64,000 bases of DNA from the NCBI GenBank assembly GCA_045863395.1, contig BTVJ01000032.1:1-64000 (forward strand), read 5' to 3'. Shown one piece after another: positions 46,600-64,000 of the stretch (within the stretch, counting starts at the first letter, position 1; each line of letters starts with the position of its first letter). Source of the stretch: Myxococcales bacterium. Lineage in GTDB: Bacteria; Myxococcota_A; UBA9042; JABWCM01; BTVJ01. The translations under genes were made by a program, and so were the position numbers. The notes under the pieces are model-generated. The model saw only the letters and a program-made list of their open reading frames with translations. It did no database searches and had not been told where the DNA came from.

Positions 46600-46788
46600 A
46601 TGGGAAGCCTGACCGCCTGTCCGCGCTGCGGACGCACACTGACCAAGTCACTTCTGGGAGGGGCCTTCTTCCCGGTCTCCAAGTGCCTCAAGTGCGGCAC
46701 GAAGTACTGCAAGGACTGCGGCGGCACGAAGTGCCCGAAGTGTGGGGCCTCCGACCGCATGGAGACCGACAAGGTCTACGCGCGCTGA
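46600..46788 (+). CDS. Small double zinc-ribbon protein
   Basis: GGAGG RBS; CPRC, CLKC, CKDC and CPKC in 62 aa. Confidence 0.75.
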   Translation: MGSLTACPRCGRTLTKSLLGGAFFPVSKCLKCGTKYCKDCGGTKCPKCGASDRMETDKVYAR

Positions 46789-48596
46789 CCCGTCAGGGTC
46801 TCGGCGGTGACGGGCAGCTCGATGCGCGTCCGGCAGCCCTCGGTGCAGTCGAGCGTGAGCGTGGAGGAATCGGGGTCCCAGCCGCGGTATAGGAAGAGCC
46901 GCTCGGTGCCACAACCGCGGCAGTGAGCGGACAGCGCGAAGGGACCCGCCGAGAGCGGTGACGCGCCGCCGCGCAGATACACGTAGGTCAGCTCTTCGTC
47001 GCCGAGCCAGAGCCCCGTCTCCAGAGACTCGGCGCTGAAGACGACCCCACGCTCCTCACGCCGCGCCAGATCCGTGAAGCGATAGACGTGGAGGGTCGTG
47101 GCCGCGTCGTGCCCGAGCTGGTCGATGACCGCCAGGTCCACCGCGCGGAGCGCCGGCAGGGCCTCGACGAGGCCCACCCAAGCGGCCCGCAACTGCTCGA
47201 CCTGCCGCGGATCCGTGATGGGGCGTCCGTGGGCCTCGTCGTTGCGGGCATCGCGCAGGGAGCGGAGCGCATCCGAGGAGAGCACCGGACCCAGCTCCGC
47301 CGCGAGCCGGACCGGGAGGGCGGGGGAGGCATCCCGTACGGCTCGGCCCAACGCCCGCTGGAAGGACGTTCGGATCCGCGCGACGTCCATGAGTCCTCGG
47401 CGACCGCGGCTCAGGTGCTCCATCACGCCGTCTCCACCTCCTGGAAGCCGCCGGAGCCCGAGGATCAGGACCAGCTCGATGAAGGCCAGGAGCTGCTCCA
47501 AGTGAGTCACGACGGCCCGGACGACCGCCCCGGAGCGAGCGCGTGGTGAGGCCGCGATCACCGCCTGGCGACGAAGAGGCCAGGGAAGCGCGGCCGCGCA
47601 CCAGGCTCTGCGAGCTGCCTCCCAGGACGTGGCAGCAACGGTCTCCAGCTCCTCCCGAAGGCGCGCAGGAGCGCCTGCAACGACCCCATGCAGCGCGGCC
47701 AGACCCCACGCCAGCTCGATGAAGTGCCAGGCCCGCACCTCTGGGAAGTCGGGGCACGGCCGCCGCGTCTCCCGCACCTGGAGGATGTGACGCGCCAGGT
47801 CCAACAGGACGACCCGGGTCTCCTCCGTGACGGCGCCGCCATCGATCGAGAGATCCAGCAGGGTCGCGAGGCACGCCAGCCGGGGCGCGTAGACGAAGGA
47901 GAGCTTGTATCCCTCGGCCGTGAAGAAGGAGTCCTCCTCGGCGAAGCGAGGAGACACCAGCTCCGCCATGAGCCACCGGCGCGCCCGAGCCTGGGACTCG
48001 GGTGGGATCGCGCCTCGCAGCGACGTGAGGGCGAGGGACGTGCCGAGGCGACTCGGAGGACCGCCCGGGCGAAAGGGCCAGGCACCGGTGTCGAGCTGCA
48101 GAGAAAGTAGCCGCGCATGGTCTGGAGTCACGTCACACGTGTTGGAGAGCGCGAGGATGGAGTAGGCCGTGCTGTAGGTGCGGACGTCTGGACTATCGTC
48201 ACTGACGCCCCAGCCTCCATCGGGGAGCCGCGCACCTTGGAGCCACGAGCGCGCTCGCTCGATCACAGACGATCCGCGGCCGCGGGCCCCCGCGCCGAGC
48301 AAGAAGGCCGCGGTGGCGTCCACGATGGAGACCGGTCTCCCACACGCGGGCTCGGCATAGGGGAGACCGGCCTGGCTTCGCTCCAGAGCGGCCTCCAGGA
48401 ACCGTTCAGATGTCTCCAGCGCGAAGTTCAGAGTGTCCGAGAGCCGGGGAAGCGCCGCGAGGGCCCCATAGATCTCTGCCGTGGTCCAGCAGCCGCTCCG
48501 GTCCCCTGCGTAGGTCTCGGGAAAACCCCCGTCCGGGTTCTGCCACGATGCCACGTCGTCGAGGGCGGTCAGCCCCACGCGCAGCAGCTCGTTCAC
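46776..48596 (-). CDS. Prenyltransferase/squalene-cyclase-type repeat domain + HEPN-like domain
   Basis: QNPDGGF, LPDGGWG and QLDTGAW repeats; then HLEQLL..RNDEAHG (RxxxxH, 47229-47246) and a C-terminal PF..CRGC..LFLY domain. Confidence 0.65.
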   Translation of the reverse strand: MNELLRVGLTALDDVASWQNPDGGFPETYAGDRSGCWTTAEIYGALAALPRLSDTLNFALETSERFLEAALERSQAGLPYAEPACGRPVSIVDATAAFLLGAGARGRGSSVIERARSWLQGARLPDGGWGVSDDSPDVRTYSTAYSILALSNTCDVTPDHARLLSLQLDTGAWPFRPGGPPSRLGTSLALTSLRGAIPPESQARARRWLMAELVSPRFAEEDSFFTAEGYKLSFVYAPRLACLATLLDLSIDGGAVTEETRVVLLDLARHILQVRETRRPCPDFPEVRAWHFIELAWGLAALHGVVAGAPARLREELETVAATSWEAARRAWCAAALPWPLRRQAVIAASPRARSGAVVRAVVTHLEQLLAFIELVLILGLRRLPGGGDGVMEHLSRGRRGLMDVARIRTSFQRALGRAVRDASPALPVRLAAELGPVLSSDALRSLRDARNDEAHGRPITDPRQVEQLRAAWVGLVEALPALRAVDLAVIDQLGHDAATTLHVYRFTDLARREERGVVFSAESLETGLWLGDEELTYVYLRGGASPLSAGPFALSAHCRGCGTERLFLYRGWDPDSSTLTLDCTEGCRTRIELPVTAETLTGQRA

Positions 48597-48668
48597 ATGG
48601 TCACCGATTGGCCGAAGGGCCGGAGATGCCCCAGGACTGAACCTCGAGAGTCGCTCGTCGATGGATGC

Positions 48669-49025
48669 TCAATGGACCACCCGGTCGGTCTGGCAGATCA
48701 CGTAGGCCTCAAGCGGGGAGCTACACTCCTTGCCGCGCACGAACCGGCCCTTGACGGTCACGCGCGTGCCGGTGGGAGGGGGCGATGCCCCTTGGACCCA
48801 CACGCTCCCCTCGTCCTTGACCACCTTGTACCAGTCGAGATCCACCACGGGCGTGTCCAGGCGCAGGCTGACGACGCCGCTGACACACACCTCCTTGCCG
48901 AGGAAGGCCGCCGGATTCCCAGCCAGCTTCGCTGGGTCCTCGCAGGCAGCCTCGTAGAGGTCGCTGCAGCGGCAGCCCGCCACCCAGATCAGAACCACGC
49001 CCAGCGCCAACACCATCCACTTCAT
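48669..49025 (-). CDS. Small lipoprotein, possible OB-fold
   Basis: AAGGAGG RBS; MKWMVLALGVVLIWVAGC lipobox; GKEVCVSGVV..YKV.D.GSVWV..G..VTVKG. Confidence 0.7.
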   Translation of the reverse strand: MKWMVLALGVVLIWVAGCRCSDLYEAACEDPAKLAGNPAAFLGKEVCVSGVVSLRLDTPVVDLDWYKVVKDEGSVWVQGASPPPTGTRVTVKGRFVRGKECSSPLEAYVICQTDRVVH

Positions 49026-49140: not shown

Positions 49141-50121
49141 TCACGAAGACACCGGCGATGATCGGACCATGCGGAAGCCCGACGTGTCGTCGTGCCAGTC
49201 CGGCGTCGAGTAGTGGCGGAGCGATGCACGGAGCGAAGCCGCGGTCGAGACCCAGGATCCGCCCCGCGACACGCGGCCCGTGCCCTGGGCCGGGCCCGTG
49301 GGGTCGTCCACGGCTCCCGCGGGATACTCACCATAGCGATCCCAGCACCACTCCCAGACGTTGCCCAGTACGTCGTGGAGACCCCACGCGTTGGCCGCTC
49401 GCTCCGCAACGCGCTGAGGTGCGCGGACTGCGTCCGCACGGCTCCAGGCAATCGCCGGAACTGCCCCATAGGTAGGGCCGGTCGAGCCAGCCCGGCAGGC
49501 GTACTCCCACTCCGCCTCGGTGGGGAGCCGGTAGCCCCCCGTGTGGTGGGCGGCGAGGACCCTGTCACACCGGAAACCGGCTCCCGCCGCGCGACCGTTG
49601 CTCCCAAAGTAGGCGTAGCACGGCGTCAGGCCCTCCTTCAACGACAGGGCGTTGCAGTACCACACGGCGTCATACCAGCTCACGTTGACCACCGGAGCCA
49701 GGGGATCTCCACCCCTTGCCCCGCCCGGGAGGCTCTGTAGCAGCCCCGCCCACTCTCCGTTGGTGACGGGGCACACCTGAATCAGGAACGGGCGCGTGAG
49801 GGTGACGACGTGCTGGCGCTCGTCCCCGAAGCGACCGGGCTCGTCCCTGGGCGCCCCCATCGGGAACTGGCCAGGCTCGACCCGCACCCAGCCAGGCGGA
49901 ACGGAAGGAGGCTGCGGGCCAGGGCCGCCCGGATCGACCGGGTACCCGTCCAGCACCGCCTCCACATCGTCAGGGTGGACGCCCACGGCCACACCGCGCT
50001 CCGCGAGGACCGCGCGCGCCCGAGGCGTGATGGCACCGTAGGCGCATACTGCGAGGTCAACCGCGTCGCGAAACCTGGCGAGAGCCTCTGGGTCCGAGAG
50101 AACGAACGTGAGGTCGGACAC
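49141..50121 (-). CDS. FGE-sulfatase (SUMF1-like) domain protein
   Basis: AAGGAGG before GTG 50121; FPMG, PVVNVSWYDA, YRLPTEAEWEYACRAG, NAWGLHDVLGNVWEW, RGGSW, GFR. Confidence 0.88.
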   Translation of the reverse strand: MSDLTFVLSDPEALARFRDAVDLAVCAYGAITPRARAVLAERGVAVGVHPDDVEAVLDGYPVDPGGPGPQPPSVPPGWVRVEPGQFPMGAPRDEPGRFGDERQHVVTLTRPFLIQVCPVTNGEWAGLLQSLPGGARGGDPLAPVVNVSWYDAVWYCNALSLKEGLTPCYAYFGSNGRAAGAGFRCDRVLAAHHTGGYRLPTEAEWEYACRAGSTGPTYGAVPAIAWSRADAVRAPQRVAERAANAWGLHDVLGNVWEWCWDRYGEYPAGAVDDPTGPAQGTGRVSRGGSWVSTAASLRASLRHYSTPDWHDDTSGFRMVRSSPVSS

Positions 50122-50214
50122 ACGCACCTCCTTGCGGGCGGCGAGTCTACTCGACTTGTGGGGAGCTGGGAACCCGCCGTGCACATGGGACCGCAGCACC
50201 GGGAATGAGCGGCG

Positions 50215-50856
50215 TCAGGACGCGGTCGCCCACCACAGGGCGAGCGCCGCCAGGGTGAAGCCGCAGAAGACATCGCCCCGGCGCACGGCCCCGCGGACCT
50301 CCTCCTCGGTCAACGCGAGGCGCCGGACGATGCGCTCGTCGGGCTCTTCGTGGTCCCGCGCCCGCTCCGAGCCCAGGCGCACCAGCACGACTCGGATGGG
50401 GTGCATGCAGAACGTCGTGTTGGGGTTGCACCAGCCGATGGGAGTGGCCAGGTGTGGCTCCATGCCCGTCTCCTCCCGTGCCTCCCGAAGCGCCGCGTCC
50501 TCGCAGGACTCCCCGGGCTCCGGGAACCCTCGCGGGAGCTCCAGGCTCATCGCGCCCAGGTTCGACAGGTCCCCGGGAGGATACTGAGGAGTGCCTCCCG
50601 GGGTCAGGGCGGCGGGGCGCCACTGCTCGACGAGGACGAGGCGCCCATCCGGGAGCACGGGCACGACGACCGCCCCGCTCGGCGGGTCCGCCCAGAGCGG
50701 GAGGTCGTAGCGAGGCTCCCCAGCCTCGTCGCAGGCAACGGCGTGGACGATGGTGCCGTAGGTCGGGTTCGCGAGCACGGCGTCTGGCGGGCTCGGGCGC
50801 CACCCAGGGTGAAATGGCGTGCGCTCCACCAGGGTCGACAGGGGACGGACCTTCAC
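50215..50856 (-). CDS. Nudix hydrolase (ADP-ribose pyrophosphatase-like)
   Basis: LVEQWRP and the Nudix box ELPRGFPEPGESCEDAALREAREETG. Confidence 0.88.
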   Translation of the reverse strand: MKVRPLSTLVERTPFHPGWRPSPPDAVLANPTYGTIVHAVACDEAGEPRYDLPLWADPPSGAVVVPVLPDGRLVLVEQWRPAALTPGGTPQYPPGDLSNLGAMSLELPRGFPEPGESCEDAALREAREETGMEPHLATPIGWCNPNTTFCMHPIRVVLVRLGSERARDHEEPDERIVRRLALTEEEVRGAVRRGDVFCGFTLAALALWWATAS

Positions 50857-50883: not shown

Positions 50884-53800
50884 TCACAGGTACAGGACCA
50901 GCGGGCAGGCCTCGATCCGCTCCTGCGCCGACTCCTTCGACTTGCAGCGGGCGAGGTGCGCCTCGTAGACGGCCCGCGGCAGGTCGATGGGGCGGCCGAT
51001 GGACGCGCGGACCCTCCGCAGGAGGCTTCCTGCCACATTCACCATCTCGGCGTCCAGCACGGACCAGAGGGTCACGACCAGCGCGCCGCTCCCGGCCGCG
51101 ATGAAGGCGCGTAGGAAACCGGACACTTCGCCACCGGGCGCGTCGGCTCCCTGGCCCGTGACGCACGCACCGAGGACCGTGAGCTTGTTGCGGGCGAGGC
51201 GCAGAGACGCGGCGATGTCGAACTGCGTGAGCACGTCTCCCTCCAACGCCAGGGCTGGGCCCAGGGCGTCGAGGCGGCGGTCCCAGAGGCCGTGGCCGGT
51301 GTAGACGAAGACCTCGGGGCGGGGAGCGGTGAGCCGTCCCAGGGTCGCTCGGCTGGCGGGACCGACGGGCCTGACTCGTGGCGCCCACTCCGGGAGGGTC
51401 CCCGCCCAGTGGAGGTCCTCCCGAGGCCAGTCGAGGCCCTTCAGCTCGCGCCCCGTGGTGTTCTCGTCGAGGAGCGCCAGCACGCACAGGTCGTCGCCCG
51501 GCTCGATGGTCTGCACACGGAGCAGGTGGCGGGACCGGCTCACGAAGGCGGCCGCGCTCACGGAGAAGCAACAGGGGAGGGATGCCGCCAGGGGCCACCT
51601 CGTCTTCGGCTCGAAGGCGACATGGAGCGGATAGCGGAACAGCTCGCCACAGGGGATGATCACGAGCAGCTCCGGCGGAGCGGCACCTCCGCACACGTGC
51701 TTCCAGAGCGGCGCCAGCAGGTGATCGCTCATGGCCTGCGCGAGCTCGACCGTCGGACCCGTGTCAGGGTCCGCCTGGAGGCGGCCCTGGTAGGCATCCC
51801 ATGCGAATCTGACTGGTGCGAGCTGCAGGTCGTCCACAAACTCCATGCGGGCACCGCGGAACACGAAGGCACCCAGCGCAACTCGCTCTCCCTCGACATG
51901 CTCGAAGTAGCGGATCACTGCGACATCCGGGTGGTTCGTCGTGAAGCCGCGCACCGTCCGGCCCAGGTCTTCGTCATGGCCGCTGGTCGGGATGGGGTGG
52001 TTCAGCATCCACTGCTCATAGAAGGTACGGCGTTGCCCGATGGCTGCGTCGACGCCCGAGCCCGACACCCCGTCGGTCCGGCGCATGGTTCCCCGGCGCC
52101 GCACGCGCATTCCCTTCCTCTTCCTGGCGGGCTGCGAGACCTGGATGTCCGCGAAGAGAGGCACCTCCGGCAGCGCCGCGATGCCCTCGGCGGGCGCACG
52201 GCGAGAGGCTCCCTGCATGAGGTCAAGCAGCTCCCGGGCGCTGGCCTCCTCCACATAGGCGAGGGCGTCCTCCCGGCTCTCACCCACGGAGGGGACGCGC
52301 TCCGACCTGAGGGGGGCCCGGCGGAGGCTGGCCGCGACGGCCTCTCGATACACCGGCGCCACGTGGCTCGCGAGGGCGGCCTTGTGCTGGCCGACGGTGA
52401 CGACCTTCCGCTGCGACTCGACCGTGCGCAGCCGCTCTCGCAGCCAGCGGATGCGGGCACTGGAAACGTCATCGCCTTGTCGCTCCATCTCGGTGATCAC
52501 CTTGTGGTAAGCCGCCAGCGCGAAGGTCTGGCGGTCCAGATCGAAGCCAGCCTGGGCTGAGGGCCGGGCGCGCGCCTCCTCGAGCTCATCCACGAGTCCC
52601 TCCACCAGCGCCCGCGCTTCACCGACATCGCCTTGAAGCAGCCGGATCTCCGCCAGGTTCTGTCGAGCGATGAGGCGCCCCCGGACCCAGGGGAGCACGT
52701 CGATGGACTCCCTGCACAGCCCTGCCGCCTGATCGAGGTGGCGGGACCTCTCTTCGCCGGACGACTTCTCCGCCCTCGACTTGTGCAGCCGCGTCTGATG
52801 GCCGAGCGCCTGCGCGAGCCGGTACGCATCTCCGTTGGCGCGAGCGATGACCTCTGACCCCCGGGACCACGAGAGCGACAGCTCCTCGTCCGACGACGAC
52901 AGCTCGTCGGACCCGTTGTGGTACAGGCTGCACAGGCCCCGGAGATGCTCGCGGTCCCTCGGAGACTCGGGGGGAGTGACCTCGCCGACTCGCAGCGCGG
53001 CAATTCCATGGAGATTGGCCACCCTGATCGCATCCTCGATGAGCGGTCGGTAGCGCTCCTCGGGCGGGCCAGGCGCGGTGCCGACCGTCCGCTTCTCCTG
53101 CGTGGCACCGCGCTCCAGGTTGCTCCTCAGGTCCGCCAGGCACCACCACAGGTCGTGCTCGACGGCGACCGTCACGGCACGCTCGAACGACCGCCGCCCC
53201 TCCGTATGGTCCCCGGCCCGGTAGCTGGCCTTGCCCGCGCCGTCGAACCACCGGGCCGCCGCGTAGGCGTGCCACTGGACGTCGGGATGCTTCGTATCCA
53301 GACGCTGTTCGAGGGACTCGGCCAGCGCCCGGGAGCGGTCGGCGAGCTGGAGCGCCTCGTGGTACTCGTAGGCGACGTCCGCGCTAACGATGCGGCACCA
53401 CCACGCGCCCACCGCGCAGGCGAGCTGCTCCACGGGGTCCGACGGAGACCGAGGCAGGAAGGCGCCAAGCGATTCGAGGTGGCCAAGGCAGACGTGGTGG
53501 CGGTACTCCGTGTCGTAGACCGCGTCGAAGAGCTCGACCAGGCCTCGCACCCTGTCGCGCACGCCGGGGTCTCCGAGGTCGGTTCGGGCGGTACCAGCCA
53601 AAGCAACCGCTGGCGCGCTCGGGGGGAGAGGCGGCTGTCTGCGCGCATCCGCCCGCGCCGGCGGCTGCGTGAGCACGGAGGGAGACGACGAAGCCGCGTC
53701 GAGCGTGTCGACCACGGGGGCGCCGCTGGGGGGGGTCACGACGGCCCCCTGGTTCATGGCCACCGGGGGCTCGGGAAGCATCGGCTGCTCCTGTCCCGGC

Positions 53801-54657: not shown

Positions 54658-54770
54658 CTTCCAGTCTCCCCAGGATCTGCGGATGCGGTGGCGGAGTCTC
54701 GGACCTCGATCCTCCCTGCCGCACCACCTTACGTCTTCGCCCCCACTTCCGGCAATCACCCCGCTCCTGC

Positions 54771-57428
54771 CTATGCCCCGTCCCCATCCGTCACGCCGGG
54801 CCGCAGCGCGCCCGGGTCGTCGCGCACAGTGGCCGCCACGAGGTCGAAGAGTCGGTCGCTGCCGCCGGACACCGCGCGGAGCAGGAAGCGTCTGAACGCG
54901 CCTCGCTCAGCCGCGCGGCGCACCTTCTCCATGGACACACCCTGGTCGAGCAGCGCTCGCAGGGCCGGCCTGAGCAAGTGACGCGCGAGGCGCCGGGAAC
55001 CGGCGGCGTGCGCATGCTCCAGCAAGGTGGTCAGGCCAGCCTCTCCGCGCACGCTCAAGTCGCGCGCGTCGATGCGGTCGAGGAGGTCCGCGTCCACCTG
55101 GAGCCGGGGCATTGCCAGGAGGAGACGCACCAGCGCCGCCGGCGCCACGCGCCCGAGGGCCGCGCGCTCGATGGCGTCCACTTCACCCGCGTGCTCTCCG
55201 GCGACCAGGCGCCAGCCCTCGGCCTTGGGCCAGCGGCTGGCCCTCGCACGCCACGCCGGGTCCGTGGAGGTGAGCAGGACGGCGAGAGGCACCACATCGA
55301 GCGGCGGGGGATCCGCCTCTCCCCACAGCTTCAGGGCGAGCCAGACGTGGGCTTCAGTGGACGCCGCCCGGAAGAGGTCGGACGCCGTGTGCGCCGCGCT
55401 GCCGCGGAGGGCGAGGAGCGGAGCCAGGATGCCTCTCGCGTCGTCCATGTCGAGACGAGGCAGAGCGGCGCCCCGCAGGCAGGCGACAAGGTAGGAGAGT
55501 CCCGGGTCCCCCACCACGCTCGCCGGGTCCACCTGCCTCGCCCAGTCGCGCGCACAGAGCAGGAGCTCCCGTCCACCGTCGGCCGCGGCGAGCAGATCCC
55601 GCGCCACTCCGCGATCCGCTTTGGCCCGCTCCAGGGTCCACTTGCGGCCGACGTCCGACGCCGGGGCGCCACGCGATGCCCGCTCGCGCAGGAGGAGCCG
55701 GGCCCACGGATCACCGACCTCCGCGGCCACGCGGGCGCGCAGATCCCACACGTCCAGCTCACGCTCCACTGTGTGCCAGTCGCGCAGGAGGGCATCGATC
55801 ATGGTCGCCGAGACGGGACCGGCCACACTCCGGGCCAAGGCGACGGCCGCCCGCGCCCCGTGGCGCTCCGGCAGCCGCGCGGCGAGCGCGCCCAGACCCA
55901 CCGCCTCCGCCAGGCGCCAGGCACCCGTGAGGGACCCGCGCGACACGCCCAGGTCCAGCAACCGCGTGACCGTCTCCTCGTCTTCCGGGGCGAAGCACCG
56001 CGCCAGCTCCACGAGGTCTTCGGCGGCGGGCTCGCCATGCGTCAGCGCGCGCGCCGCTCGCCACGCCCCCGTGTCCAGCTCCGCGGCCCACGCCCGGTCG
56101 CTCCGCCGCCCGTGCTGGGACCGCAGCGCCGCCCACGCGAGGCGCCCCTGGGCCAGCTCTCTCCACCGCCGCACCCACTCCGCGTCCCCCGCGGCGGGCG
56201 CGGCGAGACCCTCCACCTGCCCCGGCGGCACGCGGTCCAGGAGCCGCGCCACGCGCTGCGCGGCCTCCTCCGCCGCGTCCAGGTGCTCGCTCCGGACGTC
56301 GTCGAGTAGCTCCGGCGCAGCGCCCGCGTGCACCTGCACCGTCCCCAGGAGCACGCCCAGCGCGCGCACGGACCGAGAGGTCTCCGCCGCACGGCGCCAC
56401 GCCTCGGCCCACTCGGGTCCCCGCGTGCCAGCGAGCGCGGCCGCTCGCTGACCCCGGGGCGCAGTCGCCACCGCGTGGAGCGCGTCCAGGTGCAGCATGG
56501 TCACCTCGACGCGCGCCGCCGCTCCGCAATGGAGCGACCTGCGGAGCCCATCGATGTGGTCCAGGTCCTGGGCCAGCTCCGCGGCGCGCCTCGCGGCGAC
56601 GGGCCATGGGTCGCCAGGCGAGAGCCGGAGCCCCCCCAGGGCAGCGTCGACGCGCTCGCACAGCTCCCGCAGGGTCGTCGCGCCCGCACCGATCCGTGCG
56701 ACGTGCTCCGCGTAAGCAAGCCCTGGGAGCGCCGCCTCGTCCGCCCCGCGCAGCACACCGTCGACGATGGATACTCCGGTGGCCACCGCCTCCCCGAACC
56801 CGATTGCCACCGCGTCCGTGACCCGCGCGAGACCAGCCCCGAAGGGCACCCTCCACGCCACTTCCCGGGGGAGGCAGGCGAGCACCACCGCCGTGCGCTC
56901 CAACTGCGCCTCGACCGCGCCCCGGTCCCGGATCCCCACGGCAAGCCCCGACGCCACCACCGCCAGCAGCAGGCGCACCTGCTCCGCCCACCCATCGGGC
57001 AGCGCGATGTCGGTGGGGGACACCACCAGCGGGGGTGCGGCGGGGTCCACCACAACCGGAGGCTCCGGCGACAGCGGGACCGCGGGCAGCAGGGCGCGGT
57101 CCCACGCATCAGGCCGGCACACGCCGTAGTGCGCCTCCGTGTAGAGGCGTCCCGGCGCGCCCTCTCCGGCCTCCGAGCGCCCTCGGATGCGCCCCACCAC
57201 CACCACACCCTCCACCGCGGCACCCACCACCCCACCGTCCGGCCACCGGTAGTGGTCCCACGTGAAGCCCGCCCCACCACCGAGGCCCAGGCGGTCGGGG
57301 CGGCACCACCGCACCACCTCTGCGGTCACGCCCGGGGACCGGACCGTGCAGCCGTGGTCGCACCCCGGGACGATGGGTCCCCGAGGGCTCTGCACCAGCT
57401 TTCCGTAGCGGACTTGCAGGAGCTCCAT
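54771..57428 (-). CDS. GTPase-associated (GAP1-N-like) large helical protein
   Basis: Directly downstream of the GTPase (7 bp). The N-terminal Q..YG..SPG..GR.Y.EAHY pattern resembles GAP1-N domains by eye; the rest is Ala/Arg-rich helical sequence. Confidence 0.55.
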   Translation of the reverse strand: MELLQVRYGKLVQSPRGPIVPGCDHGCTVRSPGVTAEVVRWCRPDRLGLGGGAGFTWDHYRWPDGGVVGAAVEGVVVVGRIRGRSEAGEGAPGRLYTEAHYGVCRPDAWDRALLPAVPLSPEPPVVVDPAAPPLVVSPTDIALPDGWAEQVRLLLAVVASGLAVGIRDRGAVEAQLERTAVVLACLPREVAWRVPFGAGLARVTDAVAIGFGEAVATGVSIVDGVLRGADEAALPGLAYAEHVARIGAGATTLRELCERVDAALGGLRLSPGDPWPVAARRAAELAQDLDHIDGLRRSLHCGAAARVEVTMLHLDALHAVATAPRGQRAAALAGTRGPEWAEAWRRAAETSRSVRALGVLLGTVQVHAGAAPELLDDVRSEHLDAAEEAAQRVARLLDRVPPGQVEGLAAPAAGDAEWVRRWRELAQGRLAWAALRSQHGRRSDRAWAAELDTGAWRAARALTHGEPAAEDLVELARCFAPEDEETVTRLLDLGVSRGSLTGAWRLAEAVGLGALAARLPERHGARAAVALARSVAGPVSATMIDALLRDWHTVERELDVWDLRARVAAEVGDPWARLLLRERASRGAPASDVGRKWTLERAKADRGVARDLLAAADGGRELLLCARDWARQVDPASVVGDPGLSYLVACLRGAALPRLDMDDARGILAPLLALRGSAAHTASDLFRAASTEAHVWLALKLWGEADPPPLDVVPLAVLLTSTDPAWRARASRWPKAEGWRLVAGEHAGEVDAIERAALGRVAPAALVRLLLAMPRLQVDADLLDRIDARDLSVRGEAGLTTLLEHAHAAGSRRLARHLLRPALRALLDQGVSMEKVRRAAERGAFRRFLLRAVSGGSDRLFDLVAATVRDDPGALRPGVTDGDGA

Positions 57429-57435
57429 GGGCACC

Positions 57436-58326
57436 TCACGCCGGCATGCAGAAGACGCCCTCGGCCTTGCCCGTGGCGGCGAACACGAAGGGGTCGAGCA
57501 CCTGGAAGGGCTGCCAGAGAGCAGCCGCTTTGGGGAACCCGCAGGAGGGCGCGGTGTGCCTGAGACCGCCGGTCTGCGGGTTGAAGTTGGGCGCGCCCTC
57601 GGCGAACCCGAACACGGAGGTCCAGCAGACCCCGAGCAGGGTGGGCTTGCGGCAGAGCAGCTCCAGGGATCGGAGCCCGGCGGGCGCCATCAGGCTGCGC
57701 AGCACCGAGACGGGGTCACTGGAGCGCGCCTGGGAGAGCGCGCGTGGTCCGTGCGCCTGGAAGTGCTTGTCCGCCTTGGTCAGGCACACCACCACGCGCT
57801 CGAGGGGGGACTGGCGGCGCTGGATCACCTCCTCGAGCAGCGCCGGCAGCTCCACGAAGAACGTGGGCAGGTCCTCCGGGTTGGTCGGATCCACGCACAG
57901 GATGAAGCCCCGCGCGCGGGACAGCTCGGACAAGAGCCGCTCCCGGTGGGCGTCCTCCACGTCGGCGTCCAGGGACGCACGGCCCACCTGAGGGAGCAGG
58001 CTCGCCCCCGGCCCATCCAGCAGCTCGAAGCGCGTCTCCGATGCGTCGGTCCTGCCGAACAGCCGCCGGCGCGTCGTGCGCAGCGAGAAGGAGTACCGGC
58101 ACACGTCGAGGGTGCCGTCGACCGGCGGCAATCCCTCCTGGCGCGTCAGCCCCACGCCATAGGTCCGCAGGAGCTGCATCATCTCCTTGTTGGGCGTCAC
58201 GATGTCGTGGGACAGGTCTCCTTCCTGCGCCACGTTGCGCGCGGCGATCTGCAGCGCGCCCACCATCATGGTCTTGCCCGACTTGGACGGGCCGAGCACT
58301 CCGTATCCGCGCGACTCCAGCGCCAT
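57436..58326 (-). CDS. TRAFAC-class P-loop GTPase
   Basis: G1 GPSKSGKT, G2 DGT, G3 LLDGPG, G4 LTKAD, G5-like TSVFG, C-terminal WQPFQVLDPF; GGAGGAGG RBS. Confidence 0.85.
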   Translation of the reverse strand: MALESRGYGVLGPSKSGKTMMVGALQIAARNVAQEGDLSHDIVTPNKEMMQLLRTYGVGLTRQEGLPPVDGTLDVCRYSFSLRTTRRRLFGRTDASETRFELLDGPGASLLPQVGRASLDADVEDAHRERLLSELSRARGFILCVDPTNPEDLPTFFVELPALLEEVIQRRQSPLERVVVCLTKADKHFQAHGPRALSQARSSDPVSVLRSLMAPAGLRSLELLCRKPTLLGVCWTSVFGFAEGAPNFNPQTGGLRHTAPSCGFPKAAALWQPFQVLDPFVFAATGKAEGVFCMPA

Positions 58327-58356: not shown

Positions 58357-59112
58357 TCAGCGACGGTCCAGCGACCGCAACGACCGCTTGATCTCCTCCA
58401 GCAGGTCGATGGCCCGGGAGAGACCATCGTCGATGACGGCCTCGTCGCCGCCCTCCGCCGGAAGGAGGCGGGGAACGAGGTCCTCCACGACCTCGCCTAT
58501 TCGCAGAAGCTCCGCCCGGGTCATGTCCACGCTCCCTGGCACTCCCCGGCGACGCCTGAGCGCGGCGGTGACGTCTCCGCGCAGGCGGTGCATTCGCCGG
58601 TGGCACAGATCGCGGATCCCCATCAAGTGCGTTCGGACCGGGTGCTGGAGGCTCAGACTCGCCCGCGCCGCCAGCAGGGCGTCGTCCACGCGCAGCCATG
58701 TGCGTACGAGCGCGCCCAGCTCAGTGCGGAGGCCCTGCTGGTCACGCCACCACGGCGGAAAGAAGATCACCCAGGCGACCGCCCGATCCTCCTCGGAGTC
58801 TCGCGGGCTCGTGCGGGTGGTCAGCGCCGCCCAGGTGATCAGGCCGGCGCACAGCGTGACGCCAGCGAGCCAGACCCAGGGCCACTCGCCGATGAGGCCC
58901 ACCGACACGAGGACGACGCCCGGAGACAGCCCGACGAGGATGCGCCCGAGCAGATATCCGAGGAGCATCGCCTTGAACCCCGCGTCGCGTGCCGCGCGGC
59001 TCAGCTCCCGCCACGCGGTCTCGATACCTGCCGAGACCTGCGCGAGCACGGTCATCAGCCGCGCGGCCAGGTCGTTTGCCAGCCTCACCAGCGATCCGAG
59101 CCAGTCTCCCAT
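58357..59112 (-). CDS. Membrane protein (2 TM) between the PspA-like gene and the GTPase
   Basis: AGGAG before ATG 59112; hydrophobic hairpin LLGYLLG..VGLIG / WVWLAGVTLCAGLITWAAL. Confidence 0.7.
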   Translation of the reverse strand: MGDWLGSLVRLANDLAARLMTVLAQVSAGIETAWRELSRAARDAGFKAMLLGYLLGRILVGLSPGVVLVSVGLIGEWPWVWLAGVTLCAGLITWAALTTRTSPRDSEEDRAVAWVIFFPPWWRDQQGLRTELGALVRTWLRVDDALLAARASLSLQHPVRTHLMGIRDLCHRRMHRLRGDVTAALRRRRGVPGSVDMTRAELLRIGEVVEDLVPRLLPAEGGDEAVIDDGLSRAIDLLEEIKRSLRSLDRR

Positions 59113-59166
59113 CGGTAACTCCTGTCCTGTGAGCATCGCTGTCGGTCTCGCCCACCGCCGTGCCAG

Positions 59167-59856
59167 CTACTTCTCTCGCCTCTGCGCCCTGTCGAGGATG
59201 GCGCTCAGCGGATCCGCCGCCAGGGACCCGCGTTCCCCGGCCAGCTCCGCCAGCAGCGCGTCGGCCTCGTCTCCGCCGCCACTCTCGCCCGGGAACGCCC
59301 AGGGGTCGGCGTCCAGGTCTCGCCACGCCTCCTCTTGAGACTCCAGCCGCTCCACCCCTTCGAGGAGCGGGCCCCTCCAGTCCGCCTCGCCGACCCGCCC
59401 CAGGCCGTCCGCGGACTCACGCAGGTGGAACGCGGCGCCGGCCCGCGCCTCTCGCGCGTCCGCCCACGCCACCTCCAGCTCCGCCTGCCGCGCCTCCGCG
59501 TCCAGCGCGTCGAGCTGCCGCTCCAGGTCTGCGACCCGGGCCCGATGCTCCCGGGCCCGCGCCGCCAGCTCCGCCGCGCGCCTCCGGTGCACGACGGCCC
59601 GCTCCGCGGCCAGGCGGGCCGCCACGGCGTCTCCTTGGTCAAGAGCGGTGCCCGCCGCGGTCCGCTGAACCCCCTCCTTGTGGCGTTCCGCGTCCAAGTC
59701 CCGCTCCACCAACGCCAGGTGCGCCATGGCCACGGCCACATGCTGGGACCCGTCGCGGTGCCGCCCCCTCACCTCCTCGACGAAGCGCCGCGCCCGCTCC
59801 CGCGGGTCCACCACGGCCTTCCTCCGTCTCCACCACGCGGCGACTCGCCTCCACAT
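59167..59856 (-). CDS. PspA/IM30 (ESCRT-III-like) family protein, divergent
   Basis: AGGAGG RBS; amphipathic N-terminus MWRRVAAWW; DP motif; long coiled coil with A..AL..GD..AAR.A hairpin; C-terminal DALLAEL; 229 aa. Confidence 0.7.
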   Translation of the reverse strand: MWRRVAAWWRRRKAVVDPRERARRFVEEVRGRHRDGSQHVAVAMAHLALVERDLDAERHKEGVQRTAAGTALDQGDAVAARLAAERAVVHRRRAAELAARAREHRARVADLERQLDALDAEARQAELEVAWADAREARAGAAFHLRESADGLGRVGEADWRGPLLEGVERLESQEEAWRDLDADPWAFPGESGGGDEADALLAELAGERGSLAADPLSAILDRAQRREK

Positions 59857-60076: not shown

Positions 60077-60136
60077 ACGGCTCCGACGAACCCACCCCGG
60101 GGGACTCAGCAGCCTACTTGCATGGAGGGAACCACC

Positions 60137-60793
60137 ATGGCGACGACAGTCCGCGAGATCGCAGGCTTCCTGGACGAACGCGGGATCAAGTACGACATCA
60201 AGGGAGACTCCCGCATCGTGACCGGCTTCCGCACCAAGTCCTTCACCAACGTGGAGGGCGAGAAGTCCATCGTGGTCGTGATCCTGCTCCAGGAAGATGG
60301 CCGATACTTCCAGGTGTACGCGCCTCTGGCCATGCGCGCGGAGGGGCCCCACCAGGAGGCCTTCATGAAGGCCTGCATGGCCGTGCAGTGGAAGACCAAG
60401 CTCATCCAGTTCGAGATGGATCCCCAGGACGGCGAGATCCGCCCGACCGTGGAGTTCCCCCTGGAGGATGCGCCCCTCACGGCGGCCCAGCTCCACCGGA
60501 GCATCGGGGGCCTGATCACGCTGCTGGAGGAGTACTACCCGGTGCTGGAGAAGGCCCTGAAGACCGGGCAGGTCGAGTTCCCCGAGGAACCCCAGGACCG
60601 CATGATGCGCATGCTCCAGGAGATGATGAGGACGGTGGACCCCCTCCGGATGCAGCTCGCGGCGACGGTGGCGCGCATCACGGAGCTTCGTGAGACCGGC
60701 GGAGATGCCGTGACCATCGGAGTGCTGGAGCGGGAGGCGCAGCGGCTCCAGGCGGCCATCGCTGCCTCGTCGGGGGGACCAACGGAGCTATAG
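60137..60793 (+). CDS. YbjN/type III secretion chaperone-like protein
   Basis: GGAGG RBS; I..FLD..G..Y, I.L.EDG.Y, K.IQFE.D..DGEIR..VEFPLEDA.LT..Q pattern; helical tail. Confidence 0.7.
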   Translation: MATTVREIAGFLDERGIKYDIKGDSRIVTGFRTKSFTNVEGEKSIVVVILLQEDGRYFQVYAPLAMRAEGPHQEAFMKACMAVQWKTKLIQFEMDPQDGEIRPTVEFPLEDAPLTAAQLHRSIGGLITLLEEYYPVLEKALKTGQVEFPEEPQDRMMRMLQEMMRTVDPLRMQLAATVARITELRETGGDAVTIGVLEREAQRLQAAIAASSGGPTEL

Positions 60794-60844
60794 GGACGCC
60801 GGTGAAACCGGGGGGGGCATCCAACAGCATCGTGAGGAGTCCAC

Positions 60845-63800
60845 GTGGCCGAGATTCACGCAACGACCCGGAGCATCCTCGCCTGGGCCAAGCGCGCGGC
60901 GCTGGCCGCCAGGCGCGACTCGCTGACCCTACCCGACCTGCTGTGCGGCCTCTACGCCGTGCGGGAGGACACCACCGTGGCGCCGCTGCTCGCAGGGCGA
61001 GCGCAGCACTGGGCCGACCCAGTGGTCTCTGGGTGGGAGAGCGCGGCCGGAGTCGACGAGACGGACCGCAAGTTTCCCCTGGACGACGTGGTCCGAGACT
61101 TGGTGCGCCGGGTCCACGACAAGGACCCGGCGCTTCCCCCGGCGCTCCTGCTGGAGGAGCTGCTCAGGCACGGCGAGGCCTTCCAGCGGCCGGCGGAGCG
61201 GGCGCTCTCGCCCATGCTCCGGCGCCTGGACGAAGCTCGGGATCTGGCGGACCGTCTGGTCGCTGCGCTGAAGGAGCGCGTCTTCGGCCAGGACCAGGCG
61301 ATCCGCGCCCTGGGGGAGGCCGCCTTCCACGCGACCGTCTCACCACCTTCCCAGGGTCCCCGCGGCGTGCTCACCTTCCTCGGGCCCTCCGGCGTCGGCA
61401 AGACCTGGCTCGCCGAGTGCTTCGCCGAGGAGCTGGCGCGCATCCGGGGTGAAGCCATCGGCTTCCGCCGGTTCGACATGGGCACCTTCGGTGGCCCACA
61501 GAACTTCGAGCAGCTCTTCGGCACGGAGCAGTTCTACAAGGGGAGCCGCCCGGGGACCTTGACCGGGTTCGCGAAGGACACCCCCCGCGCCGTCATCGTC
61601 CTCGACGAGCTGGAGAAGGCCCACCCGACGACCCTGCAGGCGCTGTTGGCGGTGTTCGACAAAGGAGAGGTGGTCGACAAGGCGCTGGAGCGCCCCGTGG
61701 ACTTCCGCGGCACGTGGTTCATCGTGACGACCAACCTGGGGCAGCAGCTCTTCGCGGGCCCCAACAGCGCTGGCGTGCTCCACGCCGGCGGCGCGTCCCC
61801 GGAGCTGGTCTACGACATCCTGACCGCGCGGGGCGAGGCGGGCGCAGAGGGCTCTACGCCCGGCCTGCCGCCCGAGCTGGTCTCGCGGTTGGCGAAGGGA
61901 GGCGCCGTGGCGCTCGGTGCGCTGGAGACACGTCACACCTTGCGCATCGTGGGGCGGGCGTGCGAGACGGCGTCGGACACCCCCAGCGTCCGCCCGTCCC
62001 GCGATGCGGCGTTCATGCTCCTCCTGTCGCTGCTCCCCCAGCTCGACGCCCGCCGGGTGGCCGCCCGCACCTCCACCTGGGCCTCGGAGCTGGTGCGCGG
62101 GGCCCACCAGGTGTGTCGCAGCGAGCTGCACGCCGCCAACCCCGAGCGCCTGTCGGTGCGCGTGGAGGTGGTGGGCGAAGCCGCGGCGTGGCTGCGCGCG
62201 CGCCTGGAAGCCCCGAGGCTCCGGGTGCTGGTCGTCGACGACGGAGACGATGTGCGGCGCCTCGTCGCGGCGGAGCTGGGGGCAAGCGTCGAGGTGCAGC
62301 GAGCCACGTCCGGGGAGGCGGTTGCCCTGGCCCAGCGCCTGCGGCCCGATGTGGTGCTCCTGGACCTGTGCATCGACCAACCCCAGAGCAGCGCTGTGGT
62401 CACGGGCGGCGACGCCGTGCTGGAGGCGCTGCGCACAGCGCTGCCCTGGCTCCCCGTCGTGCTCTTCAGCGAGAACGTGGATGGGCGCGGCGCCTTCGAG
62501 TCAGTCGTCGCGCGCGTGCTCGCACGGGGCGGCGCCCGCGCCTTCATCCCGCTCCGCCGGGACCACACGGACCCGCTCGCCGCCGAGGATCTGGTCGCGC
62601 GGGTGCGGGCGGTGGTGGACGATGTGCTGCTCGACCGGGTCCTCCGCGAGCAGGTCCGGGCCCACAAGGCGGTGCGGCTTCGGACGGAGTTCGCGTGGGA
62701 CGCCGGGGCCACCGAGGTGGTCGCCCGCATCGTCGGGGTCTCCGAGCAGGTGGCCATCGCCGCTGCCGACCGCTCCGCGTCCATCCGCTTCGCCGGCATC
62801 CCCACCGACCGCCTCGACGACCTCGTCGGGCTGGAGCGCGCGCGGCGACGCCTGCGCCAGGTCGTGCGCTGGCTGTCCGACCCGAGCACCCTCGAAGCCT
62901 TCGGCGCACGCCCGCCGCGGGGCTTCTTGTTGGCAGGTCCTCCCGGGACGGGAAAGACGATGCTCGCCCGCGCCCTGGCCGGCGAGGCGGGGCTGCCGTT
63001 TCTGGCCATGTCGGCCGGCGAGCTCCAGTCCAAGTGGGTGGGGGAGTCGGAGGAGCGCATCCGCGAGCTCTTCCAACGCGCCCAGGCCTACGCCCCGGCC
63101 ATCGTGTTCATCGACGAGATCGACGCCGTGGCGGGGCGCCGGGGCGAGGTCGCGACCCACGCCCACTCGGTGCTCAACCAGCTCCTCGCGTGCATGGACG
63201 GCTTCCAGGTGGCCGACCGCTCGGTGTTCGTGCTCGCCGCCACCAACCACCCCGAGGGGCTCGACCCCGCCATCCGGCGCCCGGGGCGCTTCGACGAGGT
63301 CATCGCGGTGGAGCGACCCAACGCGGCCGCCCGGCAGACCTTCTTCGAGCGCCGCCTGGCCCCCCTCGACGTGAGCGGGGCCGATCTGCCCCGGCTGGTG
63401 CGTGCCACGGCCGGTTTGACTCCGGCGGAGCTGGACCGCATCGCCCGCGAGGCGGCCTACGCGGCGGCGGCCGACGGGCGGCAGAGACTGGAGGGAGCCG
63501 ACCTCCTCGACGCCGCCCGCCTGGTGCGCTTCGGCGCCGAGCGAGAGGACCTGCAGGTGCGCCCCGACGAGCTGCGCGTGACCGCCTGGCACGAGGCGGG
63601 CCACGCGGTAGCCCACCTGACCCTGCTCCCCGATGATCCCATCGAGCTCCTGACCATCGTTCCCAATGAGCGGGGCGCCCTCGGCTTCCTGGCATCGCAG
63701 CGGGACGAGGCACGGCACGACCTGACGCGGGACCGGGTCCGGCGTCAGCTGGTCGTCGCACTCGCTGGGCGCGAGGCCGAGCGCCGCCTGGGCGGCGACG

Positions 63801-64000
63801 ACGCATTGACCGCGGGCGCCCGCAGCGACCTGGAGCAAGCGACCCGCCTCGCGGCGGCGGCCGTCGGGGAGTGGGGCTTCGACGAGGCGGTGGGCCCCCT
63901 GTTCGCGCCGGCCCTCGGAGACCCGGCCCTGGTGCGACGCCGCGCCCGCGTGTGGCTCGCAGAGGCAGCCCAGGCGGCGAAGGCGCTCCTCGACGAGCGC
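60845..64000 (+). CDS. Fusion of ClpN-like, ClpB D2-type AAA+, receiver (REC), FtsH-type AAA+ and M41 peptidase domains (3' end beyond window)
   Basis: Absent from the ORF track because no stop lies in the window. GAGGAG then GTG 60845; one frame carries RVFGQDQAI, FLGPSGVGKT, LDELEKAHP, VLVVDD..PDVVLLDL, GPPGTGKTMLARALAGE, FIDEIDA, RPGRFD and AWHEAGH. No TM segment seen. Confidence 0.88.
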   Translation, partial: MAEIHATTRSILAWAKRAALAARRDSLTLPDLLCGLYAVREDTTVAPLLAGRAQHWADPVVSGWESAAGVDETDRKFPLDDVVRDLVRRVHDKDPALPPALLLEELLRHGEAFQRPAERALSPMLRRLDEARDLADRLVAALKERVFGQDQAIRALGEAAFHATVSPPSQGPRGVLTFLGPSGVGKTWLAECFAEELARIRGEAIGFRRFDMGTFGGPQNFEQLFGTEQFYKGSRPGTLTGFAKDTPRAVIVLDELEKAHPTTLQALLAVFDKGEVVDKALERPVDFRGTWFIVTTNLGQQLFAGPNSAGVLHAGGASPELVYDILTARGEAGAEGSTPGLPPELVSRLAKGGAVALGALETRHTLRIVGRACETASDTPSVRPSRDAAFMLLLSLLPQLDARRVAARTSTWASELVRGAHQVCRSELHAANPERLSVRVEVVGEAAAWLRARLEAPRLRVLVVDDGDDVRRLVAAELGASVEVQRATSGEAVALAQRLRPDVVLLDLCIDQPQSSAVVTGGDAVLEALRTALPWLPVVLFSENVDGRGAFESVVARVLARGGARAFIPLRRDHTDPLAAEDLVARVRAVVDDVLLDRVLREQVRAHKAVRLRTEFAWDAGATEVVARIVGVSEQVAIAAADRSASIRFAGIPTDRLDDLVGLERARRRLRQVVRWLSDPSTLEAFGARPPRGFLLAGPPGTGKTMLARALAGEAGLPFLAMSAGELQSKWVGESEERIRELFQRAQAYAPAIVFIDEIDAVAGRRGEVATHAHSVLNQLLACMDGFQVADRSVFVLAATNHPEGLDPAIRRPGRFDEVIAVERPNAAARQTFFERRLAPLDVSGADLPRLVRATAGLTPAELDRIAREAAYAAAADGRQRLEGADLLDAARLVRFGAEREDLQVRPDELRVTAWHEAGHAVAHLTLLPDDPIELLTIVPNERGALGFLASQRDEARHDLTRDRVRRQLVVALAGREAERRLGGDDALTAGARSDLEQATRLAAAAVGEWGFDEAVGPLFAPALGDPALVRRRARVWLAEAAQAAKALLDER

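Follow-up and report, generated by a model that had tools for sequence, protein, structure and literature searches.

In this study, a string of nine consecutive minus-strand genes was analysed in a stretch of 64,000 nucleotides (contig BTVJ01000032.1, positions 1 to 64,000; hereafter the window), which makes up the opening 64 kb of an 84-kb contig in a genome of 8.77 Mb that is 97% complete and has a G+C content of about 71%. The source is an uncultured wastewater myxobacterium, and near-identical DNA is present in wastewater, sludge and bioreactor metagenomes from 10 studies. According to the listing of open reading frames and the G+C content by codon position, the string runs from position 59856 down to 46776 and encodes, in this order, a PspA-like protein, a protein with two transmembrane spans (2-TM protein), a GTPase, a large partner protein, a HEPN-motif/CHAT protein, a Nudix hydrolase, a protein with a formylglycine-generating enzyme (FGE)-sulfatase domain, a small lipoprotein and a protein of 606 amino acids (aa). 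The gaps between these genes are 30, 30, 1-7, 11, 27, 15, 115 and 72 bp, six of the eight being 30 bp or shorter, and Shine-Dalgarno-like motifs (AGGAGG or GGAGG) lie upstream of six starts, namely those of the PspA-like, 2-TM, GTPase, partner, Nudix and lipoprotein genes. A reading made from the sequence alone (referred to as the sequence-only reading) had described nine co-oriented genes divergent from a YbjN-like gene and an AAA protease fusion, and this arrangement was borne out, the gaps measuring 1-115 bp. In the middle of the string, the GTPase and its partner are a rare, sequence-divergent version of a predicted GTPase "conflict" switch.

The GTPase gene (57436..58326, minus strand, 296 aa) and the partner gene (54771..57428 with 885 aa, or up to 57434 with 887 aa, minus strand) form a conserved pair, and they alone among the nine genes are conserved together. 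Related loci, numbered here with the prefix L, were gathered from genomes and metagenomes and compared with all window proteins by tblastn. Ten related loci have sequence beyond the last GTPase gene, and in 9 of them the partner is encoded there (L001, L016/L021, L022, L023, L024, L025, L032, L002 and L020; L016 is the same sequence as L021 and was counted once). In L020, the partner match is weak and a DUF4407 gene sits between GTPase and partner, while L030 gave no partner match in the 370 nt available downstream of its GTPase gene. The closest non-identical pair consists of a GTPase with 56% identity (P0002) and a partner with 41% identity (P0008), both of which list a longest contig of 53832 bp. 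In the window, the ATG of the partner lies 7 nt past the stop codon of the GTPase, and the two genes are probably translationally coupled. Relative to the DO-GTPase/GAP1 "GTPase-centric conflict systems" (Kaur, Burroughs, Iyer and Aravind, 2020; eLife 9:e52696; PMC7159879), the pair represents a rare sister branch. The GTPase/GAP1 pairing of the sequence-only reading is supported, as a conserved pair of the DO-GTPase/GAP1 kind, by the 9 of 10 loci together with the structure-atlas clusters and the profile-profile alignment described below.

The GTPase belongs to the TRAFAC class and is a distant relative of DO-GTPase2. It contains the P-loop GPSKSGKT, the G3 motif DGPGA and the G4 motif TKAD, and past these motifs a C-terminal extension of about 100 aa is also conserved. 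Ras-like GTPases carry a catalytic glutamine after DxxG, and in the GTPase family described here Ala or Gly occupies this position. The Pfam model DO-GTPase2 (PF19993) scores 21.5 bits on the window GTPase, below its cut-off of 27, and a search of its own genome with the same profile returned no match at E≤0.01. At family level, the model matches 38 of the 104 members at E<1e-3, the best with 3.8e-11, and the hhalign comparison of the family with three canonical myxobacterial DO-GTPases gave 94.4% with an E value of 9.5e-8 over 132 columns. The N-terminal zinc ribbons are absent from the family. A search of PDB sequences with the GTPase gave nothing beyond P-loop-level matches. The HMMER profile scan places 555 representative clusters in the family at E<1e-3, of which 104 lie below 1e-30; a word-indexed search found only 5 relatives of the GTPase and three matches to the 887-aa partner, one of them being the partner itself. 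Within the Myxococcota, the family is rare and patchy, occurring in 7 of the 401 sampled genomes. The window contains one GTPase, and two tandem paralogs are present in six related loci (L001, L016/L021, L023, L026, L027 and L002); Kaur et al. describe paralogous tandem GTPases in 38% of their systems (PMC7159879). Five family members (P0030, P0057, P0071, P0079 and P0083) carry N-terminal extensions of 150-550 aa outside the GTPase profile, which are fusions to the GTPase.

The partner corresponds to GAP1 proteins in order and size, since it lies directly downstream of the GTPase, has a length in the range of about 600-950 aa and is conserved at the N-terminus. Conservation is centred on residues 1-330, and the remainder past the N-terminal 300 residues or so (the C-terminal 550 aa) is helical. 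Neither the partner profile against PDB sequences nor a search of the own genome with PF20013 gave a match. In the ESM Atlas, all of the top 30 clusters for the partner are GAP1-N1/N2/M/C clusters (scores 0.92-0.95, 183-206 of 256 features in common), and the Atlas models show template modelling scores by target of 0.66-0.71 over partner residues 3-424 and 6-313. The AlphaFold2 model of residues 1-328, which was calculated from a 10-sequence alignment, is confident, with a pLDDT of 84.5 and a pTM of 0.82. With this model, Foldseek found 6ekk_B (E 9.1e-4, probability 0.96) and 3tw8_C (E 1.2e-3, probability 0.97), which are the guanine nucleotide exchange factor (GEF) domains of DENND1A and DENND1B solved with Rab35, and nothing else near significance. 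The best VIA-align matches are DENND10 (Z 7.2, 215 aa, root mean square deviation 5.1), TagF (Z 7.1, 226 aa, deviation 5.2), an Asgard Roadblock-longin protein (Z 7.1, 121 aa) and DENND1A (Z 6.9, 224 aa), followed lower in the list by Lst4, GATOR1, C9orf72-SMCR8 and FLCN-FNIP2, and by Roadblock domains at Z 4.2-4.5. Longin and DENN proteins dominate the list, and the matches span both predicted domains (residues 1-139 and about 140-290). Of the tripartite DENN arrangement, the longin (1-139) and the alpha/beta domain match DENND1A/B and DENND10 over 215-224 residues, and the d-DENN part was not resolved. From the models, the N-terminal 300 residues or so of the partner are predicted to be a longin domain followed by a DENN-like module.

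For the comparison with canonical GAP1, a GAP1-N2 model was built from an independent 5-sequence alignment. Over its first 120 residues, strands and helices succeed one another as they do in the partner, and its fold list is headed by TagF (Z 7.4 over 224 aa) and Asgard longin (Z 7.0) and continues with GATOR1, FLCN-FNIP2, Lst4, DENND10 and DENND1A. A hairpin motif, R...GR..[YF]..H, is common to the partner and canonical GAP1 at the same position. Within the partner family, R80, R82 and G93-R94 are invariant in or after the third strand (an Arg-rich hairpin), as is Gly17 in the loop between beta1 and beta2, which is followed by Pro in 7 of the 10 members. Because the fold-hit list, the order of secondary structure elements and the hairpin motif are the same, and with the gene order as further evidence, the partner is read as a distant homolog of GAP1. 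The call of a GAP1-like protein in the sequence-only reading therefore holds in terms of fold, motif and gene order but not for the Pfam profiles, whose failure that reading had itself named as a result that would speak against it. By extension, the N and M regions of GAP1 may be read as a longin plus DENN-like (TagF-like) module, as far as the models go.

The surroundings of the pair differ between the related loci. In L023, a SIR2-FGE fusion (L023:5324-7069), the SIR2 part of which matches the LmuA/ThsA models, is divergent from a double-GTPase pair, and in L020 a stand-alone FGE gene (L020:4636-5718) lies directly upstream of the GTPase. Counting the window, FGE domains adjoin the GTPase in 3 of the 7 loci for which several kb of flank are available, and FGE is the only recurring accessory theme among the related loci. 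A Peptidase_C14 caspase gene lies upstream of a canonical GAP1-N2 gene in L042, which belongs to the same phylum. These three loci support the recurrence of caspase-fold proteases and FGE/FGS domains beside such pairs. As a separate observation, most relatives of the pair are housed in a conserved cluster of about ten genes (L001:762-15594, L021:3-15797 and L024:1-13996), which encodes, in this order, a large protein (about 900-1060 aa), three small proteins of which one is coiled-coil, a coiled-coil protein (about 480-570 aa), a classical AAA+ ATPase (about 600 aa), a Fer4_12/NrdG-like protein (about 235 aa), one or two GTPases, a further protein (about 300 aa) and, last, the partner. In L025, the Fer4_12 gene (687-1322) is the sole cluster gene seen upstream of the GTPase, and the copy of the cluster in L024 abuts a phage-type integrase and a D5-like primase. 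DUF4407 membrane proteins and proteins of 755-867 aa without assignment recur in L020, L023 and L032.

Compared with the DO-GTPase/GAP1 systems, the window has in common a TRAFAC GTPase followed by a partner of about 900 aa, relatives that often have tandem GTPases, a patchy distribution, a host of the multicellular type, and variable neighbours that include caspase-fold peptidases, FGS, Nudix and transmembrane proteins. Caspase-fold and FGE/FGS neighbours are described as themes by Kaur et al. (PMC7159879). It differs in that no Walker-B glutamate, zinc ribbons, Pfam GAP1 match or GASH/FNIII component was seen, and in that a PspA-like gene and an orphan 2-TM gene upstream and a HEPN-motif/CHAT gene downstream were not among the themes noted from that paper. 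The third constant component of these systems is described there as a GASH protein in the N1 type or an FNIII-repeat protein in the N2 type; Pfam found neither in the window genes nor in the sequence that flanks the related loci, although it was not checked whether Pfam includes a GASH model.

Several known GTPase regulators resemble the partner in part. In eukaryotes, DENND1 acts as GEF of Rab35, and FLCN-FNIP2, GATOR1 and C9orf72-SMCR8 are further longin/DENN regulators (PMC3521125; PMC12290439); the partner is predicted to share with them a longin followed by an alpha/beta DENN-like fold. In the longin GTPase-activating proteins FLCN, NPRL2 and SMCR8, an arginine finger of the longin domain and a GP motif just before beta2 are described as together forming the catalytic pocket (PMC12290439), and the partner, whose gene lies beside that of its presumed GTPase, has candidate counterparts in its conserved arginines and the Gly-Pro before beta2. 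It is unlike the eukaryotic proteins in having an identity of only about 10%, no sequence-level match, Z values of about 7 and a conflict-type context instead of vesicle trafficking. The best bacterial structural match is TagF, an accessory protein of the type VI secretion system (PDB 9t0n, 6iz8 and 2qnu; Z 7.1 with the partner and 7.4 with GAP1-N2), which is smaller (about 220-320 aa) and sits in type VI secretion clusters. To our knowledge, TagF has no partner GTPase. In myxobacteria, MglA/MglB likewise combine a small GTPase with a neighbouring regulator of the Roadblock/longin superfamily, but MglB consists of one Roadblock domain (about 160 aa), MglA belongs to another GTPase family and the pair has a role in polarity and motility.

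Upstream of the pair lie the PspA-like gene (59167..59856, minus strand), which encodes 229 aa from an ATG with AGGAGG upstream and represents a PspA/IM30, ESCRT-III-like paralog, and the 2-TM gene (58357..59136, minus strand, 251-259 aa). The PspA call of the sequence-only reading passes the curated threshold of PspA_IM30 (PF04012) with 42.2 bits against 33.9, and the genome search gave 39.9 bits. The protein matches Vipp1/PspA structures with an E value of 0.012 over residues 27-206, with a Vipp1 alignment at 34-214. No ortholog of it was found in 400 other Myxococcota genomes. Since a canonical PspA is encoded on another contig of the same genome (C30:26026-26679, 178.9 bits), the gene at the locus is taken as an accessory, divergent paralog. 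The 2-TM protein has hydrophobic spans at 57-85 and 87-106, which suggest a membrane hairpin, and a helical cytoplasmic tail of about 150 aa. In Pfam, it has a weak Holin-X match alone (E 0.016), and no relative save itself was found among 5.8 billion proteins at word-level sensitivity. Both genes thus appear to be lineage-specific orphans. According to Ravi et al. (2024, mSystems, PMC11237479), PspA is paired with membrane partners, CesT/Tir-like chaperones or AAA+ ATPases, and some gammaproteobacterial psp operons of the pspF type contain a gene of the DO-GTPase family. The window resembles such phage shock protein systems in the sequence of a PspA homolog and a 2-TM protein (compare PspM), with a YbjN-like chaperone and a double-AAA+ protein near. 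It is unlike them in that PspA is here a divergent second copy without orthologs and the YbjN/AAA pair is conserved independently.

Downstream of the partner follows the HEPN-motif/CHAT gene (50884..54759, minus strand, 1291 aa, or 1257 aa from M35). The CHAT domain (PF12770) is clearly recognised at residues 1005-1275 (3e-18, 66.7 bits against a cut-off of 24), and its His and Cys are intact in the motifs YTGHG (H1156) and GACV (C1199), which we take to be the catalytic pair. Ahead of the C-terminal CHAT domain lie a HEPN-like region at the N-terminus, with RNDLVH at 239-244, and a helical middle part. The protein gave no match to PDB sequences. A second RNxxxH motif, RNDEAH at 451-456, is present in the 606-aa protein (46776..48596, minus strand). 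In the Atlas, 17 of the 30 clusters nearest to the CHAT protein carry HEPN_RiboL-PSP with a score of 0.91, the 143-153 features in common lying under the guide value of 170. Pfam gave no HEPN match on the excised segments at E≤10, and BLASTP between the two HEPN-motif regions aligned the motif alone (E 0.042). Of the HEPN calls made from the sequence, the motif and the language-model lead therefore remain and a Pfam match is missing. The N-terminal repeats of the 606-aa protein, which had been called prenyltransferase repeats, are terpene-cyclase/prenyltransferase-like in weak matches of the squalene-cyclase type (PDB 8paj, E 0.001; NCBIfam, 0.0015), and nothing stronger was obtained. As to the further domain calls, those of PspA, 2-TM, GTPase, CHAT, Nudix, FGE, lipoprotein and the ClpB/REC/FtsH fusion were confirmed, and TPR repeats in the CHAT protein found no support (best TPR_12, E 0.29).

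The Nudix hydrolase (50215..50856, minus strand, 213 aa) has an intact Nudix box, matches the NUDIX Pfam model with 1.4e-11 and, in NCBIfam, models of the NudE/ADP-ribose type. The FGE-sulfatase protein (FGS, C-type-lectin-like; 49141..50199, minus strand, 352 aa) matches its Pfam model with 2.8e-43, and about 100 aa at its N-terminus are without assignment. The formylglycine-generating enzyme uses two catalytic cysteines. Because cysteines are absent from the C-terminal stretch of the window protein, it is read as a probable non-catalytic binding domain of the FGS type. The genome contains 20 FGE paralogs, so the chance of an accidental adjacency is not negligible in the window alone. The small lipoprotein (48669..49025, minus strand, 118 aa, AAGGAGG upstream) has a signal peptide and the lipobox VAGC. 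Its sole relative (L058:14365-14628, 52% over 88 aa) lies about 5 kb from a pair of YbjN-like and ClpB-like genes, which may be chance. The related loci yielded no match to the PspA-like, 2-TM, CHAT, Nudix or 606-aa protein, either by tblastn or by phmmer against 2454 six-frame open reading frames from 29 loci. The co-conservation of the whole locus, on which the sequence-only reading had itself made its proposal depend, was therefore not observed for these five proteins.

On the plus strand, 265 bp from the PspA-like gene, begins the divergent gene of a YbjN-like (type-III-chaperone-like) protein (60122..60793), followed by a soluble fusion of a ClpB-D2-like AAA+ domain, a receiver, an FtsH-type AAA domain and M41 (60845..64000, plus strand, 1082 aa), which stops about 93 nt past the window. 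YbjN scores 17.4 bits against a cut-off of 22 on the window protein, and the ortholog in L060 passes with 27.1 bits; orthologs are present in 10 of the 401 Myxococcota genomes. In the fusion, AAA_2, AAA and Peptidase_M41 pass their cut-offs, both Walker A/B pairs and HEAGH are present, and the receiver stays below the REC cut-off in Pfam (25.2 bits against 30.2) but is supported by an NtrX-type stretch at E 1e-10. In L057:1740-7837 and L059:5235-11534, a YbjN-like gene is followed by full-length orthologs of the fusion with 48% identity over about 1060-1090 aa, and L056 contains an ortholog with 42% over 716 aa, where the contig ends inside the gene. In two further loci, the YbjN-like gene is accompanied by a ClpB-like AAA protein instead of the fusion. 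In L057 and L059, a GAF histidine kinase is encoded divergently next to the pair, in keeping with the receiver domain of the fusion, and no PspA or GTPase was found near the pair in these loci. The YbjN-like protein and the AAA/REC/FtsH fusion thus appear to be a separate, putatively two-component-regulated proteolysis module outside the switch system. We know of no described architecture that combines a YbjN-like protein with a ClpB-D2/receiver/FtsH-M41 protease of about 1080-1130 aa.

The scan of the gene string for promoters and terminators was uninformative, with no promoter and three terminator-like sites against 2.4 expected from shuffles. PADLOC gave no meaningful match for the nine genes; a canonical DO-GTPase/GAP1 pair is also without a model there, which makes this silence uninformative. 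Metatranscriptome contigs from three libraries of two studies span the junctions 2-TM/GTPase, GTPase/partner, partner/CHAT, CHAT/Nudix and Nudix/FGE, but they were not counted as support, since contigs cannot show a transcript and DNA carry-over is possible. In contigs of all three RNA libraries, a joint between 59242 and 61404 was noted that skips 2161 nt, is absent from the DNA run and has 23 nt on one side; it is probably a repeat or an assembly artefact. Other conflict-type genes lie in the flanks, namely a NYN RNase-domain gene, a gene for a 737-aa protein without assignment and a kinase-FGE fusion at contig positions 64266-69484, and a TraD/TrwB/HerA-like ATPase of 918 aa at 38278-41034 of the window.

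Strain variation was assessed by comparing the window with the assembly of a second wastewater study (DNA run X2). The block from the PspA-like to the YbjN-like gene (56940-61500) differs in 1 letter of 4561, and the level of divergence changes near 56940-56953. Divergence is about 1.7-1.8% in the C-terminus of the partner and in the CHAT and Nudix genes. It is highest in the gene of the 606-aa protein, with about 10% (127 differences over 1291 nt; 47300-48590), and positions 48590-49140 are replaced by 63 letters in X2, so that the lipoprotein gene is missing there. This combination of a constant switch and fast-changing distal genes fits a conflict system and simple mosaicism equally well. 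Two patches of the same length but diverged sequence were seen in the FGE gene (49205-49334 and 49394-49483). A diversity-generating retroelement was considered as an explanation for them and rejected, as the genome contains no copy resembling a template repeat and only matches to short conserved FGE motifs.

On balance, we lean towards reading the string as a composite locus built around the two-gene nucleotide switch, that is, a variant of the DO-GTPase/GAP1 conflict systems carrying modules, both of the membrane and of the protease/RNase/Nudix/FGS kind, that are specific to the lineage. In such a system, the longin domain of the partner would bind the GTPase and set its nucleotide state, most likely as a GTPase activator, with an exchange-factor activity as in DENND1 as the alternative. 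The activator is the simplest model because R80, R82, G93-R94 and the Gly-Pro recall an arginine finger and GP motif and the GTPase is without the catalytic Gln. An invader or a damage signal would be sensed by the partner through its helical C-terminal 550 aa, and perhaps also by the FGS protein. The switch would then release its outputs, which may comprise the CHAT protease fused to a probable HEPN RNase, the Nudix hydrolase, the second HEPN-motif protein, and the PspA-like and 2-TM proteins. The Nudix step could act on a nucleotide or ADP-ribose signal, and a PspA-like polymer with its 2-TM partner could have a damaging or a resealing effect on the membrane. An infected cell would, as a result, stop growing or die. 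We infer the sensing, effector release, Nudix and membrane steps from the context and from the published logic of such systems, and a membrane-stress trigger is speculation.

The conflict flavour in favour of this composite switch locus comes from the SIR2-FGE fusion with its LmuA/ThsA-like part, the integrase/D5 primase neighbours, the caspase neighbour, the distal variation and the patchy occurrence in 7 of 401 genomes. A number of results weigh against it. The Walker-B glutamate that defines DO-GTPases (Kaur et al., 2020; PMC7159879) is absent, all 22 aligned members having DGPGG/A and no Glu in this motif, where the canonical myxobacterial DO-GTPases have invariant D204, G207 and E208 (DxAGE). 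The Pfam models GAP1-N1/N2/M/C (PF20012, PF20013, PF20014 and PF20052) match none of seven partner-family members at E≤1 to 10, while the GAP1-N2 model, as a positive control, matches all five canonical myxobacterial proteins from L040-L043. The hhalign comparison of the partner family with canonical GAP1 is collinear but non-significant (0.5%, E 0.12), every Z value of the fold searches is below 8, a range in which the tool warns of a common arrangement, and the canonical GAP1-N2 model is of low confidence (pLDDT 53). Furthermore, the search of viral contigs found no relative of the GTPase, the literature yielded no defence phenotype for any DO-GTPase/GAP1 system, and the proposed output genes, none of which is conserved with the pair, are assigned to the system by their spacing and shared orientation in a single species.

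These points have to be set against other ways of dividing the locus. One is that the GTPase and the partner alone are the unit and the other seven genes are independent neighbours packed in a gene-dense, high-GC variable island. None of the seven is conserved with the pair, X2 is without the lipoprotein gene, the divergence levels are mosaic, and both the 20 FGE paralogs and the other conflict-type genes in the flanks (NYN RNase, kinase-FGE, TraD/HerA-like ATPase) would suit such an island; yet all nine genes lie on one strand with six gaps of 30 bp or less, terminator-like sites do not exceed the shuffle expectation, FGE adjoins the GTPase in 3 of 7 loci, and caspase-fold and FGS partners are a published theme (Kaur et al., 2020), and so we regard this division as rather unlikely. 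If the boundary is instead drawn around PspA, the locus would be a membrane-remodelling or envelope-stress module with no defence role, in which the GTPase and its longin/DENN regulator steer PspA assembly on the 2-TM anchor, as eukaryotic GTPases control membrane dynamics, and the CHAT, Nudix and FGE genes are unrelated or loosely coupled. The gaps of 30, 30 and 7 bp between the PspA-like, 2-TM, GTPase and partner genes, their ribosome-binding motifs and the near invariance of the block (1 change in 4561 nt against 1.7-10% in the downstream genes) speak for it, as do the transmembrane components reported for 67% of such systems (Kaur et al., 2020; PMC7159879). Against this stands that PspA occurs in no related locus, where relatives of the pair instead accompany SIR2, FGS, AAA+/radical-SAM-like and mobile-element genes, and that the PspA-like and 2-TM genes are lineage-specific orphans in a genome that keeps a canonical PspA elsewhere, which makes such a module unlikely in our view. 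The full relay of the sequence-only reading, in which PspA senses membrane damage and signals through the GTPase to the CHAT/HEPN effectors, with YbjN and ClpB/REC/FtsH as a reset, can draw on the divergent arrangement with its common 265-bp intergenic region. The YbjN/AAA pair, however, is kept at 42-48% identity in three other genomes without PspA or GTPase, and the GTPase pair occurs in 9 other loci without the YbjN/AAA dyad. The "reset" role of the fusion thus found no support, because the pair occurs in relatives without PspA or GTPase, and the relay as a whole is highly improbable. A bolder form of the composite switch locus, in which an ESCRT-III-family polymer and its 2-TM anchor under GTPase/longin-DENN control would be the membrane arm of abortive infection and CHAT/HEPN a second arm, appears decidedly doubtful to us; if true, it would be a prokaryotic counterpart of eukaryotic GTPase-regulated membrane remodelling, and the whole GAP1 superfamily would be bacterial longin/DENN GTPase-activating proteins.

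The DO-GTPase/GAP1 systems were predicted computationally in 2020, and our literature searches found neither an experimental test of them nor a fold assigned to GAP1. PspA and CHAT have so far been seen beside the switch in a single species, and a functional coupling to it is unproven. No other locus seen here has such a switch packed with a PspA/ESCRT-III-like gene. The solid result is that the DO-GTPase/GAP1 switch has a sister branch which is invisible to Pfam and has a longin/DENN-like partner. Curated profiles miss this branch, and since it comprises 555 representative clusters, censuses with such profiles undercount these systems. In the main text of Kaur et al. (2020, PMC7159879), the terms longin, roadblock and DENN do not occur, and the full-text literature search found no paper that ties GAP1 or DO-GTPase partners to DENN. 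In a 2026 preprint, profilin-longin-like domains are said, from unpublished observations, to be frequent companions of TRAFAC and SIMIBI GTPases in possible anti-selfish-element systems. The longin and DENN-like model with its candidate arginine-finger and GP motifs turns a "GTPase-associated protein" into a GTPase-activator hypothesis. As eukaryotic GTPase regulators are regarded by Zhang et al. (2012, PMC3521125) as largely eukaryote-specific, the fold predicted for the partner bears on their origin.

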